In this document: piece after piece, positions 3,654 to 48,635 of the stretch
Numbering within the stretch: position 1 is the stretch's first letter
Layout: each line of letters begins with the position of its first letter
IMG/VR virus record: IMGVR_UViG_3300032157_000002
Location: 17,327-81,326 of that record
Length of the DNA: 64,000 nucleotides
Origin: a virus
Reading direction: 5' to 3' (one strand)
Made by a program: the position numbers and the translations under genes
Notes under the pieces: model-generated
What the model saw: the letters and a program-made list of their open reading frames with translations, nothing else
Told to the model about the DNA's origin: nothing
The model's database searches: none

Positions 3654-3705
3654 CCAGATGCGCCATGCTTGGGTTGGAACGCAATCACGAGGTGGGCGCA
3701 TCTGG
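3654..3705 (-). ncRNA. TIGR-like dual-spacer stem-loop unit (1)
   Basis: CAGATGCGC-CCA-CCTCGTGAT-TG-CGTT-CCA-ACCCAAGCA-TG-GCGCATCTG. Confidence 0.8.
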
Positions 3706-3734
3706 AATATAGGTATTTGCGCGGTTTCCGTCAA
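3706..3734 (-). promoter_or_regulatory. sigma70-type promoter of tRNA/ncRNA operon
   Basis: TTGACG-N17-TATATT. Confidence 0.75.
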
Positions 3735-4480
3735 GCGGCTTTGCGACGATTGGTGTTATTATTGAAGTCGGTGTCGGTGGGATAGTGTGACCGCGCCTCC
3801 AGCACCGTCATTGCGACCGCGAGCATCTCTAGCTTGCTGATGCTCTGGCCCGGCTGATAGCCAAGCTGCTCCAGCATCCAGGCCGGTACCGGCACCTTGC
3901 GCTCCTCGTCACCATCGACGATCAGATAGGGATTGCCCCTCATAACCTCCGGAATTTCCAGCCAGCGATTGCCCTGCGCCGTGGTGATCTCGGGCAGCTT
4001 CCGATAGCCCAGCGCGTCCGGCGATAGGACCGTTTGCTTATCAAAGCGGGTGCTGCCATCCTCGCCTTTGGCGATCACCGCTCGATACTCATCGGTGTTT
4101 TTCGGGTCCATCGCCTCGTCCCAGGCCTTCACCGTGTCCTCATCGACATAGCGGGACAGGAATTCGCGGGTCTCCTCCAGGCTCAGCGTCTGGCCATGCT
4201 TGATCCCGCCCTCGGCCTTCGCCCTCTCAGCGGTCTCCTTGTTCAGATACATCCGGCCGGTGATCATATAGCCAGGGCGCGGGCTGCCAGTGACATTGAC
4301 ATAAAAGCGCTCGCCATTACGGGGGCCGCTCTCCTCTTCCGGCTCGGGTTCTACCAGTGCGACCGCCTCGAAGCCACGCTCAATGGCCTCCAACGGTGAA
4401 CGGACGAAAGCGCTCAGCGCGCCGTACAAAAATGCGTAGGGCTTGCGCAGAAAACGGGGCAATTTGTCCTGAATAGTCAT
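3731..4480 (-). CDS. hypothetical protein
   Basis: 249 aa, CCAAGGAGA RBS. Confidence 0.8.
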   Translation of the reverse strand: MTIQDKLPRFLRKPYAFLYGALSAFVRSPLEAIERGFEAVALVEPEPEEESGPRNGERFYVNVTGSPRPGYMITGRMYLNKETAERAKAEGGIKHGQTLSLEETREFLSRYVDEDTVKAWDEAMDPKNTDEYRAVIAKGEDGSTRFDKQTVLSPDALGYRKLPEITTAQGNRWLEIPEVMRGNPYLIVDGDEERKVPVPAWMLEQLGYQPGQSISKLEMLAVAMTVLEARSHYPTDTDFNNNTNRRKAA

Positions 4481-4742
4481 GGCTATCTCCTTGGTTGGAC
4501 GACTCTGTACTTGAATGGACGGCCGAAATTTTCGGCCATTTGTTGATGATCTTATGGTTTCAGCGTTGCATCATTGTTGCAACAGGTGTGACATGGCCGA
4601 TCATCTTGGCCGGGTCATTCGGTTGGGTCAAAATGGCCGTTGCAATGGCCGGGGATTTATGCGATAAAAAGGAACCCCCCGGCAGCACGCTGCCGGCCCT
4701 AAAGGCGGTGCTCGACGGTGGAAGCCGAGCCCCGCCTTTAGC

Positions 4743-4949
4743 TTATCGACGCGCCGCGCGGGCCGCAGCTTTCAGGACATCGATCGCCTCTTGAAGCTCC
4801 TCGATCTCAGCCTGGGCGCTCTCACGCCGCTCCTCATTCACCGAGATCGCATTCATCGCTTCCGAGATCGCCCCTGTCAGGGTCGAAACACTCGACTCCA
4901 TGATCCTGACCCGCTCTTCCAGCATGGCAATTGCCAGTTCCATCGTCAC
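4743..4949 (-). CDS. coiled-coil hypothetical protein
   Basis: 68 aa heptad pattern. Confidence 0.65.
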   Translation of the reverse strand: MTMELAIAMLEERVRIMESSVSTLTGAISEAMNAISVNEERRESAQAEIEELQEAIDVLKAAARAARR

Positions 4950-5317
4950 TCTCTTGCTCGTTGGATTTTCTCTTCGATAATCTTAGAGGCCAAAGAAATC
5001 GGAACAGTGTCTCCGCTCTCCAGCCCCCATTTCTCCAGCTCCTCCTTGGTCATCGCTAAGGGGCTTTCAATCCCCTCAACCCGAATGAAGGGGTGGATAC
5101 CCTGCGCCATCCGGTCATAGATATTGCTATCGGGAACCGGGGGGATCGCCATGCGGCGTCGAACAGGGCGATATCGCCGAACTGGCGCCGCATTTGTGCT
5201 GTAAGCCGGAGTATCCTTATAGGATAACCCCGGCCCCAGATCAGCAGCCAGGGTGAGCCCGGCTGCCAGCGTAAGGGGGATAAGGATCATGACATGATCT
5301 CCAGCCGGCCGAGCCAA
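4946..5317 (-). CDS. hypothetical protein, possible signal peptide
   Basis: MILIPLTLAAGLTLAA hydrophobic segment; true start probably internal. Confidence 0.55.
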   Translation of the reverse strand: MARPAGDHVMILIPLTLAAGLTLAADLGPGLSYKDTPAYSTNAAPVRRYRPVRRRMAIPPVPDSNIYDRMAQGIHPFIRVEGIESPLAMTKEELEKWGLESGDTVPISLASKIIEEKIQRARE

Positions 5318-5673
5318 TCCTTGATCGCCTCGGCAATGTCAGGGGCGTAACTATCCAGCTTGGCCATCCCGGAGCCGATGCCATCCAGCGGCCAAACCAC
5401 AATCTGGCCCTGGCGCAAAGCCGTCTCAATTTGCTGGCGGTCGAGGCGTGATTTCTGTTCCCAGATTTCAAAATCCTCATTGCGCAGATAGGCGGCCTCT
5501 TCGGTGGTGGGATAGCGTTTGGTGGGCACCCCGATCGCATTGGGCTCGCCGCGCGCTTGCGCCGCTTGGCCGCCAAAGCCCTTGCGGGCGAAATTATCGC
5601 CGAACACGAACAGCCAATCGGGATGTTCCCGGATGAATTTGCGGGTGTAGCGCTTCATATAGAGAAGGGGCAT
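5287..5673 (-). CDS. conserved phage protein (FVFGDN...GGQA...EPNAIGVPTK motif)
   Basis: Motif recalled from a widespread phage family; function unknown. Confidence 0.7.
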   Translation of the reverse strand: MPLLYMKRYTRKFIREHPDWLFVFGDNFARKGFGGQAAQARGEPNAIGVPTKRYPTTEEAAYLRNEDFEIWEQKSRLDRQQIETALRQGQIVVWPLDGIGSGMAKLDSYAPDIAEAIKDWLGRLEIMS

Positions 5674-5960
5674 CAGCGACGCCCCTTCTTCCATTCCTCG
5701 CGCGCCTCGCGGTGCAGCCGGCGCAATTCGAAGGTGACATCCTTCTTGATGTCCAGCAGCGTGTCGCCCTCCAGCCACTTCATCGCCAGCAGGAACAGCA
5801 CGATCCCAGCCGCCACCACGAACATCACCACCCCGGCCCAGAACACCAGCACCGCTGGCCAGATGATCGCCAGCGCCAATCCCAATAGGATTTCATCCGT
5901 ATGGAATGACGCCACGATCAAGCCGATCGCCGCATAGACGATCAAACCCAATTTGCCCAT
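5673..5960 (-). CDS. membrane protein
   Basis: Long hydrophobic segments. Confidence 0.7.
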   Translation of the reverse strand: MGKLGLIVYAAIGLIVASFHTDEILLGLALAIIWPAVLVFWAGVVMFVVAAGIVLFLLAMKWLEGDTLLDIKKDVTFELRRLHREAREEWKKGRR

Positions 5961-5973
5961 GGCGAAGGTCTCC

Positions 5974-6351
5974 TTAGTCGATCCGGACCAGAAGGTCATT
6001 GGAGGGAATGTCGTTGCCGACCAGCGCCGCCTTGGCTTTGTCGAGCAGATCAAGCGAAAGCGTAGCGGCGGCCAGCTCGGTGCCCTTGATCATCACTGGA
6101 TCGCTGCCGCGCACATGCATCCACACCCCATCTTCGCGAGTGAAGTCCACAAAGGCGAAGATTTTGCTGTGGATGTAGAGCAGTGTCCTTTCCCAGCGAT
6201 CCTGGGTGATGAATTTGGGATCGGTGGTGAACAGGGAGGTAGCGGTCTCCACATACACGTCGCCGTTGTTGGCGAACACCAGATCGGTGCCGTTGCCGGC
6301 ATGAACATAGACAATGCCGCCGTCTTCGCGTCTGAATTTGAGTTTCTGCAT
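5974..6351 (-). CDS. hypothetical protein
   Basis: 125 aa, CCAAGGAGA RBS. Confidence 0.75.
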   Translation of the reverse strand: MQKLKFRREDGGIVYVHAGNGTDLVFANNGDVYVETATSLFTTDPKFITQDRWERTLLYIHSKIFAFVDFTREDGVWMHVRGSDPVMIKGTELAAATLSLDLLDKAKAALVGNDIPSNDLLVRID

Positions 6352-6402
6352 GGCTGTCTCCTTGGGTAAAAGGGGCGGAGCTTGGTGCCCCGCCCGGTAG
6401 TC

Positions 6403-48212: not shown

Positions 48213-48231
48213 GGCGTGTCTCCTTGGGGTT

Positions 48232-48306
48232 TGGAGAAGTGGACGGGAATTGAACCCGCTTCTCAGGATTTGCAGTCCTGCGCATCAACCGGTCTGCCAC
48301 CACCTC
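48232..48306 (-). tRNA. tRNA-Cys(GCA)
   Basis: CAGGA-CTGCAAA-TCCTG, U73-CCA. Confidence 0.93.
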
Positions 48307-48313
48307 TATAAAA

Positions 48314-48367
48314 TGCCGGCGCCACACATGTGCTGGGCTCTCGCCATGGAATTACTGGGCGCCGGCA
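48314..48367 (-). ncRNA. TIGR-like unit (1) between tRNA-Ser and tRNA-Cys
   Basis: TGCCGGCGC-CCA-GTAATTCCA-TG-GCGAGAGC-CCA-GCACATGTG-TG-GCGCCGGCA. Confidence 0.82.
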
Positions 48368-48379
48368 GTCTTTGTGTTC

Positions 48380-48479
48380 TGGCGGAGGAGACAGGATTCG
48401 AACCCGTACGCTGCCTCTCGGCAAGCCCTCGCATTTCAAGTGCGCTGCCGCTACCCAGAATCTTTCGGCTTACTCCTCC
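48380..48479 (-). tRNA. tRNA-Ser(TGA), enlarged D loop
   Basis: GGAGGAG/CTCCTCC, CT-TGA-AA, long variable arm, G73-CCA. Confidence 0.88.
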
Positions 48480-48485
48480 GTGAAC

Positions 48486-48517
48486 TTGCATATAAGCGAA
48501 GAAAGCATTATTTTCAA
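48486..48517. promoter_or_regulatory. overlapping divergent promoters
   Basis: Minus: TTGAAA-N17-TATATG (48517-48489); plus: TTGCAT-N17-TATTTT (48486-48514). Confidence 0.6.
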
Positions 48518-48521
48518 TATC

Positions 48522-48635
48522 GATTGCGGCCCATCAAAACTTTGGGGCAACCCCATCACAATTGTGGCCGCGATCCCCCACCCCAAAGCGAGCCGCCCAA
48601 GCCAACTATGTGTCCCATGAGCCACATGGCGGTTC
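48522..48635 (+). ncRNA. TIGR-like array (2 units) upstream of capsid gene
   Basis: CCA-TCAAAACTT-TG-GGGCAACC-CCA-TCACAATTG-TG; CCA-AGCCAACTA-TG-TGTC-CCA-TGAGCCACA-TG. Confidence 0.82.

Follow-up and report, generated by a model that had tools for sequence, protein, structure and literature searches.

The phage record (IMG/VR virus record IMGVR_UViG_3300032157_000002; 102,270 bp) carries ~46 two-part hairpin units, found with a covariance model over the whole record and spread over 17 intergenic loci. The window, i.e. the whole stretch of 64,000 nt analyzed here (positions 17,327 to 81,326 of the record), holds 35 of them at 14 loci between its positions 3654 and 48635, close to the ~34 units at ~14 loci counted in a preliminary description made from the sequence. 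The units have the form stem-(GC)CCA-N8-10-TG-loop-CCA-N8-10-TG(GC)-stem, where CCA is box C, TG is box D and the two N8-10 segments are spacers A and B. The loci are the following, in coordinates of the window:

3654..3705, minus strand: one unit with a 10-bp stem, 25 nt upstream of a tRNA-Trp on the same strand
8003..8118, minus strand: two units (8006-8052 and 8067-8116), the loop of unit 8067-8116 being the GNRA mini-hairpin GCGCAAGC
9859..9904, minus strand: one unit, with CCC as second box C
14706..14756, minus strand: one unit with a GNRA mini-hairpin loop and a spacer B of 10 nt
18874..18920, plus strand: one unit, with CCG as second box C
21981..22232, plus strand: three units among tRNAs, with gaps of 3-12 nt, in the order tRNA-Arg (21900-21976), unit, unit, tRNA (22090-22165), unit
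24353..24574, plus strand: four tandem units in an intergenic gap of 320 nt
27151..27256, minus strand: two degenerate units antisense to the flanking genes, both weak matches (E 0.09 and 0.68); box D is CG, or the second box is missing
30876..30921, plus strand: one unit, flanked by two small genes, upstream of terL
32567..33555, minus strand: array of ten units antisense to the flanking genes, beginning at the terL stop
within this ten-unit array, 32850-33335: three tandem modules of ~155 nt that share the same stems and a conserved linker of two hairpins
42409..42640, plus strand: four units, preceded by a promoter-like site at 42370-42398; 7 nt separate the final unit from the tRNA-Thr that follows
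43063..43164, plus strand: two units, the first degenerate, starting 3 nt past the last tRNA-Thr
48316..48365, minus strand: one unit with a GNRA-type loop, 10 nt upstream of a tRNA-Cys on the same strand
48524..48635, plus strand: two units ahead of the plus-strand late block

A regular expression requiring a flanking stem of at least 4 bp retrieved 30 units from the window, versus a mean of 0.64 and a maximum of 4 in 50 dinucleotide shuffles, so that the motif clearly exceeds its frequency in shuffled sequence; with stems of at least 6 bp there were 18 units versus 0.12 in shuffles. The whole genome contains 40 strict matches to the expression, and a covariance model (R1) built from 11 canonical units gave 48 matches at E ≤ 1 and 41 at E ≤ 0.1; the figure of ~46 units corresponds to the R1 matches minus one opposite-strand echo and one false positive inside a gene. 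The 5′ GC-CCA and the 3′ TG-GC occur in every R1 match, and the second box C is CCA in ~40 of the 46 units and CCC, CCG or degenerate in the remainder, in agreement with the near-invariance of the boxes noted at first. Overall, 40 of the ~46 units have CCA/TG at both sites and spacers of 8-10 nt, the rest having one deviant box; those with an imperfect second box (CCC, CCG or missing) may be decaying.

The stems, with a median length of 7 bp (range 5-13), differ between units and yet stay paired, as had been claimed: 93.5 % of the stem cells are paired, versus 69.8 % in shuffles, and pairing is complete (100 %) at stem positions 3-5, each with four to five pair types, indicating covariation across units. 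Minimum free energy folds show a closed stem and a largely open interior. Palindromic flanks, variable between units, thus form the stem in place of edge repeats, which is a feature of stem-loop TIGR-Tas systems. Every 9-mer is distinct, also as first described, although the two most similar differ at a single base. Additionally, 15 of 46 units have a CTT no more than 9 nt from the 3′ stem base, versus a background of 11.7 % (p 1.5e-4); this trinucleotide is not universal, and many units without it carry CCCCT near the same place. A conserved CUU at the stem's base denotes the boundary of processing in characterized systems (Xu 2026, bioRxiv 10.64898/2026.09.09.750476), and the pyrimidine-rich CUU/CCCCU 3′ flank resembles this published motif.

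Two ~100-kb relatives without tas (TerL 57-58 % identical), with the same size and GC content as this phage, contain no units, versus 36 found here with the same regular expression and 41 with the model. This comparison bears on a further explanation, namely hairpins arising by chance, terminators or a REP/MITE-like repeat unconnected with the Tas gene, which would suit GC-rich, intergenic stems. It is hard to reconcile with a ~50-fold enrichment over shuffles, with the complete absence of units from these two phages, with arrays in which no T-tract terminators were found, and with units that are not repeats of one another and match no Rfam family. The shuffles, the covariance model and the tas-less relatives largely refute this explanation, and we consider it hardly credible. 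Published stem-loop TIGR units consist of box C CCA, box D UG, two spacers of 8-12 nt, and variable palindromic stems and loops (Faure 2025, PMC12045711; Xu 2026, bioRxiv 10.64898/2026.09.09.750476). This grammar is the one seen here; the units are very probably of the TIGR-Tas type, and the sequence supports the box C/D, two-spacer reading first proposed for them.

The effector gene, tasA (P0001, 346 aa), is situated at 586-1626 of the genome on the minus strand, 15.7 kb outside the window. P0001 is similar in sequence to TaTasR (9MTY; E 4.4e-5), and its only Pfam match, below threshold, is to PF02371. The Pfam Nop domain PF01798 usually goes undetected in the Tas family, and a six-frame search of the genome with this profile, the Nop5 N-terminal domain PF21572 and PF23667 found nothing, so PF02371 was the only Pfam lead to P0001. 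Using the AlphaFold model of P0001 (pLDDT 88.5), the top 11 Foldseek hits were all TasR or TasH (probability 1.00), followed by IS621 and then by Prp31/Nop5; identity to the solved Tas proteins is 15-18 %. The 9MTY match and the Foldseek hits thus reveal the Nop-domain partner that was sought elsewhere in the genome.

Neither an HNH nor a RuvC domain precedes the Nop domain of P0001 on its N-terminal side; residues 18-126 are modelled solely as long helices, arranged as a coiled coil with a tip. P0001 is predicted to form a homodimer through this coiled coil, with a score of 0.60 versus 0.01 for the best control (a mark that 21 of 30 known homodimers and none of 23 monomers attained), and the predicted interface comprises residues 34-53 and 98-113 of two long helices. 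According to the model, P0001 is a nuclease-less TasA made up of a coiled coil and a Nop fold. An IS110-family recombinase was also considered for P0001 and rejected, because neither Pfam nor the model shows the N-terminal DEDD RuvC-like transposase domain PF01548, and IS621 ranks below all Tas structures.

Only one of the ~46 units adjoins tasA, 37 nt upstream of the gene, and the other 45 lie at distances above 5 kb, reaching ~50 kb. The scattering of guides, as opposed to a single array at the effector, is thus confirmed: tandem clusters of 2-10 units exist far from tas, and the tandem arrays beside or within tas, for which the literature scans approximately ±5 kb, are not the arrangement found here. 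This distance concerns the location of the guides and not their mechanism. All convincing units are intergenic, though ~79 % of the genome is coding, and at least seven are 3-12 nt from tRNA ends. The claim that units always read in the local direction of transcription holds for ~33 of the 46 and fails for 13, which lie on the minus strand among plus-strand genes and are antisense to them: the ten units of the array at 32567-33555, the degenerate pair at 27151-27256 and a single unit outside the window. Scanning for promoters and terminators gave no more than chance would overall, with only the site at 42370-42398 well placed. The sequence TTGCCT-N17-TATATA occurs near 33425-33455, on the minus strand.

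The strictly intergenic position of the units, their prevailing co-orientation with genes and their presence at gene and tRNA boundaries would also fit mainly cis-acting RNA elements, such as processing sites, 3′-end stabilizers or punctuation between cistrons and tRNAs, whose 9-mers are not guides even if TasA may bind them; likewise, no targets were found in the phage genome or the relatives searched. A structural role, however, needs no two exactly spaced box C/D pairs with 8-10-nt gaps, a spacing that matches the guide geometry of characterized tigRNAs, and it does not sit well with 13 antisense units. In the modules at 32850-33335, moreover, spacers diverge faster than stems and linkers. 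We therefore regard a mainly cis-acting function as unlikely.

Regarding targets, spacer pairs were searched for ~18-bp sites in both possible geometries, with gaps of 0-2, in the phage's own genome, in the tas-less relatives G002 and G003, and in the related loci of L004 and L002 (both tas-bearing) and of Rhizobium phage RHph_X2_25. There were no sites at up to one mismatch, and counts at two or three mismatches equaled those of partner-shuffled controls; matches to spacer A plus the reverse complement of spacer B above chance, as envisaged at first, did not appear in these sequences. Additionally, single spacers were not complementary to the phage's 26 tRNAs beyond the level of sense, reversed or shuffled controls. 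This result weighs against the idea that the units are snoRNA-like guides through which a Nop-domain complex would modify or bind RNA, for instance tRNA or rRNA, and not DNA. The shared Nop fold and a dispersed, tRNA-linked layout resembling that of archaeal and eukaryotic box C/D RNAs speak for it, but the surroundings of tasA show no fibrillarin-type partner, TasR was inactive on RNA substrates (Faure 2025, PMC12045711) and TasA binds DNA (Xu 2026, bioRxiv 10.64898/2026.09.09.750476), which make it very improbable.

In the tas-bearing relative L004, scanned, like L002, at the locus only, units occupy two syntenic sites, again beside tRNAs, and their spacers differ from those here. With P0001 as query, a search for related loci yielded a single distant viral contig, which has no CCA/TG units. 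Among the matches listed from a scan of IMG/VR with a 14-base unit pattern, most were single chance matches, and two unrelated contigs had classical clustered arrays. A scan of genome contigs identified two distant cellular homologs, in a Verrucomicrobiota MAG and in Acidobacteriaceae KBS 96, and with only these no host is inferred. Among sequencing runs, this sequence turned up solely in the DNA run of the source soil metagenome and in no RNA-seq run.

Taken together, the hairpins are very probably stem-loop tigRNA genes of a TIGR-TasA system in a ~102-kb tailed soil phage. TasA proteins are RNA-guided repressors (Xu 2026, bioRxiv 10.64898/2026.09.09.750476). By analogy with the characterized family, a TasA dimer would bind each hairpin through two pseudo-symmetric box C/D sites, and the two spacers would pair with opposite strands of a ~18-bp DNA site that reads spacer A and then the reverse complement of spacer B. 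Since TasA has no nuclease, the complex would sit on the DNA rather than cut it, blocking transcription or another DNA transaction on the genome of the host or of a rival element; we assume that one TasA services all ~46 units. At least 17 intergenic sites within transcription units of the phage itself accommodate the putative guides, many of which lie within polycistronic tRNA precursors, from which RNase P and 3′ tRNA processing would free them.

It is quite possible, although we lean slightly against it, that this phage lineage dissolved its TIGR array into a snoRNA-like spread across viral operons and tRNA precursors, with maturation by the host's tRNA-processing enzymes and guides timed by transcript class. 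If true, the ~46 guides would amount to a timed programme that silences DNA of the host or of rivals by RNA guidance, and the "arrayless" Tas proteins of other viruses would use distant guides that tas-centered pipelines miss. The scattered layout provides a precedent for the question of these arrayless proteins, and it is an organizational intermediate between arrays and snoRNA-like dispersed genes. TIGR-Tas catalogs have been built by scanning a few kb around tas, with arrays described as effector-adjacent, and nearly all guides of this phage would evade such a search. The release of guides from between tRNAs, a design in use in synthetic biology, would have a natural counterpart in these units. 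Both the syntenic guide loci with turned-over spacers and the tandem modules, in which divergence is faster in the spacers than in the flanking parts, bear on how TIGR spacers arise.

Among known systems, the IS110/IS621 bridge RNA recombinases share with this one bipartite guide loops and a domain of Nop-like type for RNA binding (the PF02371 region, at ranks 12-19 in Foldseek), whereas TasA lacks the DEDD/RuvC catalytic domain and the Ser recombinase-type C-terminal motif, and the phage has many small guides without transposon ends, not one two-loop bridge RNA. Box C/D sRNAs and snoRNAs with Nop5/Nop56/58 are likewise read by a Nop-domain protein at box C/D-like motifs flanking two guide segments, and their genes are dispersed and sometimes tied to tRNA or other host transcripts; unlike them, the phage units have no K-turn or L7Ae-type boxes (RUGAUGA/CUGA) and no fibrillarin partner was identified, and the demonstrated target of the Tas family is DNA, not RNA. 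Clustered tigRNAs have been explicitly contrasted with sparsely distributed snoRNAs (Faure 2025, PMC12045711).

Rhizobium phage RHph_X2_25 (MW960032), an isolated phage of a soil alphaproteobacterium, encodes a TasA homolog (QWY83253.1, annotated as a hypothetical protein) that is 30 % identical to P0001, and also has stem-loop units with CCA boxes around tas. Its layout is the classical one, in contrast to that described here, with ~10 units within ~600 nt of tas and inside the tas 5′ coding region, and with CG or AG, not TG, as box D; its 68.8-kb genome shows no further units except for one probable chance match.

The closest parallels are PlTasA, from a Peromyscus leucopus gut contig (Faure 2025 Science, PMC12045711; bioRxiv 10.64898/2026.08.11.744272), and the further stem-loop TIGR-TasA systems BlTasA and Minisyncoccota TasA (Xu 2026, bioRxiv 10.64898/2026.09.09.750476). 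As in this phage, these systems have, in a phage or mobile-element setting, a Nop-only, nuclease-less Tas with a coiled coil and guide hairpins whose palindromic stems vary, with two spacers of ~9 nt between CCA and UG and with variable loops, some of which contain a small stem of their own; their pyrimidine-rich, CUU-like 3′ flank has a counterpart in part of the phage units. Their guide arrays lie within a few kb of tas or inside it, PlTasA having 13 units in three sub-arrays and stem-loop arrays averaging ~7 units, whereas the soil phage has ~46 units, approximately six times this average, coexisting with a single TasA at 17 loci genome-wide, one of them adjoining tasA and many in tRNA operons. 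The type of system is therefore already known, and it is the layout of its guides that is new.

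Units, here meaning tigRNA-like hairpins with two spacers (A and B) each held between a box C (CCA) and a box D (TG), were searched for across the source record, a 102,270-bp IMG/VR soil-metagenome virus with a CheckV completeness of 91 %, in which the window spans genome 17327–81326. A regular expression (CCA-N8–10-TG-loop-CCA-N8–10-TG) that also demanded flanking complementarity found 40 units with a stem of at least 4 bp in the whole genome and 30 in the window; 50 dinucleotide shuffles averaged 0.64 units and never exceeded 4. A covariance model trained on 11 canonical 9/4/9 units returned 48 genome-wide matches at E ≤ 1 (41 at E ≤ 0.1); removal of the opposite-strand copy of a near-palindromic unit and of the weakest match, an in-gene hit without boxes (window 9266–9313), left ca. 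46 units. The preliminary description had counted ca. 34 units at ca. 14 loci in window 3654–48635, and the model places 35 of the ca. 46 in that range, at 14 loci.

Every unit starts with GC-CCA and ends with TG-GC. Stems are 5–13 bp long (median 7) and, as previously proposed, differ among units while keeping their pairing, with 93.5 % of cells paired versus 69.8 % in shuffles; at three stem positions pairing is complete (100 %), with four to five pair types each. The spacers were likewise confirmed to be all distinct, with no identical pair. Most loops are short and A/U-rich (3–6 nt), and six units carry G+C mini-hairpins, five of them of GNRA type (e.g., GCGCAAGC). The predicted RNA fold has the closing stem formed and a largely open interior. 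All real units are intergenic, although ca. 79 % of the genome is coding according to a codon-usage gene map. CTT occurs near the 3′ stem base of 15 of the 46 units (background 11.7 %, p = 1.5e-4) and CCCCU reads in many of the remaining 3′ flanks, which echoes the published CUU boundary motif without matching it fully. Spacers are A-rich, with ca. 45 % G+C versus 57.6 % for the genome, tending to T as the first base and, in spacer B, to A at positions 3 and 6; their similarity is slightly above that of shuffles (11 pairs at distance 2, 4.2 expected).

Searching all six frames of the complete genome with PF02371 (IS110 C-terminal RNA-binding domain) produced a sub-threshold match, within an ORF that the 64-kb stretch does not include:

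Genome 586–1626, − strand: tasA, coding for P0001 (346 aa), 15.7 kb outside the window.

P0001 matched by sequence the structure 9MTY (E = 4.4e-5), confirmed to be TaTasR. Its AlphaFold model (pLDDT 88.5, pTM 0.81) retrieved TasR and TasH chains as the top eleven Foldseek matches in the PDB, followed by the IS621 recombinase and then by Prp31 and Nop5, thus supplying the Nop-domain partner anticipated elsewhere in the genome. Because residues 18–126 are modeled as long helices only and Pfam identified no nuclease domain, P0001 is, on sequence and predicted structure, a Tas protein of the nuclease-less TasA type. It is predicted to form a symmetric homodimer through the long helices, with a score of 0.60 versus 0.01 for the best control; 21 of 30 known homodimers attained this score, as did none of 23 monomers. 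Cellular homologs of P0001 are only distant.

Between genome positions 1664 and 97132, units are distributed over 17 loci, all of them outside the 44-kb block of late structural genes. A single unit adjoins tasA, lying 37 nt before the start codon; the next-nearest are 5.2 kb away and, across the joined record ends, ca. 5.7 kb away, and the farthest ca. 50 kb. This bears out the claim that the guides are scattered rather than held in a single array next to the effector. The claim that units always read in the local transcription direction holds for ca. 33 units but not for 13, including the 10-unit array starting at the terL stop codon. At least seven units lie 3–12 nt from a tRNA end, on the same strand, as in these cases:

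Window 21900–22232: tRNA-Arg, unit, unit, tRNA, unit; the clearest case.
Window 42647–43060: tRNA-Thr/Met cluster, with units before and after it.
Units beside tRNA-Cys and tRNA-Trp.

The window contains at least 26 tRNA genes, versus 3 and 8 in two ca. 100-kb relatives lacking tas; two, at window 20046–20121 (+) and 22090–22162 (+), were missed by ARAGORN and called by Rfam. A 222-aa HNH-type ORF (genome 17167–17835; window 1–509, −) overlaps tRNA-Asn, and a degenerate unit (genome 17113–17159) is found 7 nt away from the opposite end of the ORF.

Within the 10-unit array there are three tandem modules of ca. 155 nt (window 32850–33335, −), in which the unit stems (TCGCGGC/GCCGCAA) are the same and a linker with two hairpins, GAGTGATGG...CCATCACTC and GGCCAGCGGG...CCCGCTGGCC, is conserved, whereas the spacers either share only ca. 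60 % of their sequence or are unrelated. These modules suggest growth of the array by duplication, with spacers that change more rapidly than the sequences flanking them.

The two relatives without tas are IMG/VR phages with the same GC content and a TerL 57–58 % identical to that of this phage. Neither contains a Tas homolog, and both the model and the regular expression found no units in either, versus 41 (model) and 36 (regular expression) here. Conversely, a 99-kb Logan contig (L004) is collinear with the phage and codes for a Tas protein 54 % identical to P0001; this collinearity shows that the two record ends (genome 1–2600 and 94000–102270) are adjacent in the real genome, by circular permutation or terminal redundancy. 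Units of L004 follow the homologs of g7115–7522 and g97119–97466 (genome numbering), at two intergenic sites in synteny with this phage; their spacers are entirely different and their stems end GU-CCA. L004 also repeats the tRNA-adjoining pattern at tRNA-Cys and tRNA-Ser. In further members of the same Tas clade, units are sparse and lie several kb away from tas. Tas-bearing relatives carry an HTH_3/Xre gene directly upstream of tasA; in this phage, the two are separated by the insertion of a 182-aa gene and one guide. In a more distant Tas-bearing contig (L222 8938–10521), a Cas12f1-like/TnpB gene lies 1.6 kb from the tas homolog (P0022, 45 % identity), and no CCA/TG units turned up there.

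Homology suggests that each hairpin would be bound by a TasA dimer, and that spacers A and B would pair with adjacent stretches on opposite DNA strands. From the published 8-nt 3′ overhang and C-5 rule, we infer that the target would read A + revcomp(B), and for this reason both possible geometries were searched. The expected outcome would be stable DNA binding and repression, since TasA lacks a nuclease, and the 3–12-nt spacing suggests that guides could be released by tRNA processing. Searches of the genome of this phage, of the relatives with tas, of the two without it and of Rhizobium phage RHph_X2_25 found no DNA targets with up to one mismatch, and counts at two to three mismatches in these genomes equaled those of partner-shuffled controls. 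The spacer-pair matches sought since the preliminary description thus did not exceed chance in the phage genomes searched, and neither self-regulation nor attack on the nearest known kin is obvious. Complementarity of spacers to the phage tRNAs was not enriched.

TIGR-Tas guides have CCA as box C and UG as box D, and a second, stem-loop architecture places two boxed spacers of 8–12 nt in hairpins with variable stems and loops (Faure et al., 2025; PMC12045711). Judged by sequence, the units described here fit this grammar exactly, as the preliminary description had read them, and guide grammar and predicted effector fold together assign the system to the TIGR-Tas family. The study that cataloged 2,559 stem-loop arrays with 17,756 units also demonstrated RNA-guided repression by nuclease-less TasA and by dead TasR, and posed as an open question whether "arrayless" Tas proteins have another guide source (Xu et al., 2026; bioRxiv 10.64898/2026.09.09.750476). 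The TIGR-Tas studies compared here, these two among them, do not mention dispersed or tRNA-linked guides. The isolated phage RHph_X2_25 has a Tas homolog 30 % identical to P0001 and ca. 10 units packed around and inside tas. This stem-loop TIGR-TasA locus (MW960032, 23569–25907) is unannotated, with the Tas homolog (QWY83253.1) listed as a "hypothetical protein"; its hairpins have CCA as box C and CG or AG as box D, and at least three (24730–24887) fall within the tas coding sequence, in its 5′ part. The motif scan also identified two unrelated IMG/VR viral contigs with 7–8 units within 1.1 kb:

L063 1732–2845 and L105 1637–2818: classical clustered stem-loop arrays, with AAAA/AAAU loops and long stems.

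Some stems are common to both contigs, and their spacers differ. An array next to tas is the defining locational feature of the family, and these three examples have the classical clustered layout, unlike the scattered units of this phage, in which there is no such array; the main interest of its system therefore lies in its organization, the number of its guides and their link to tRNA genes.
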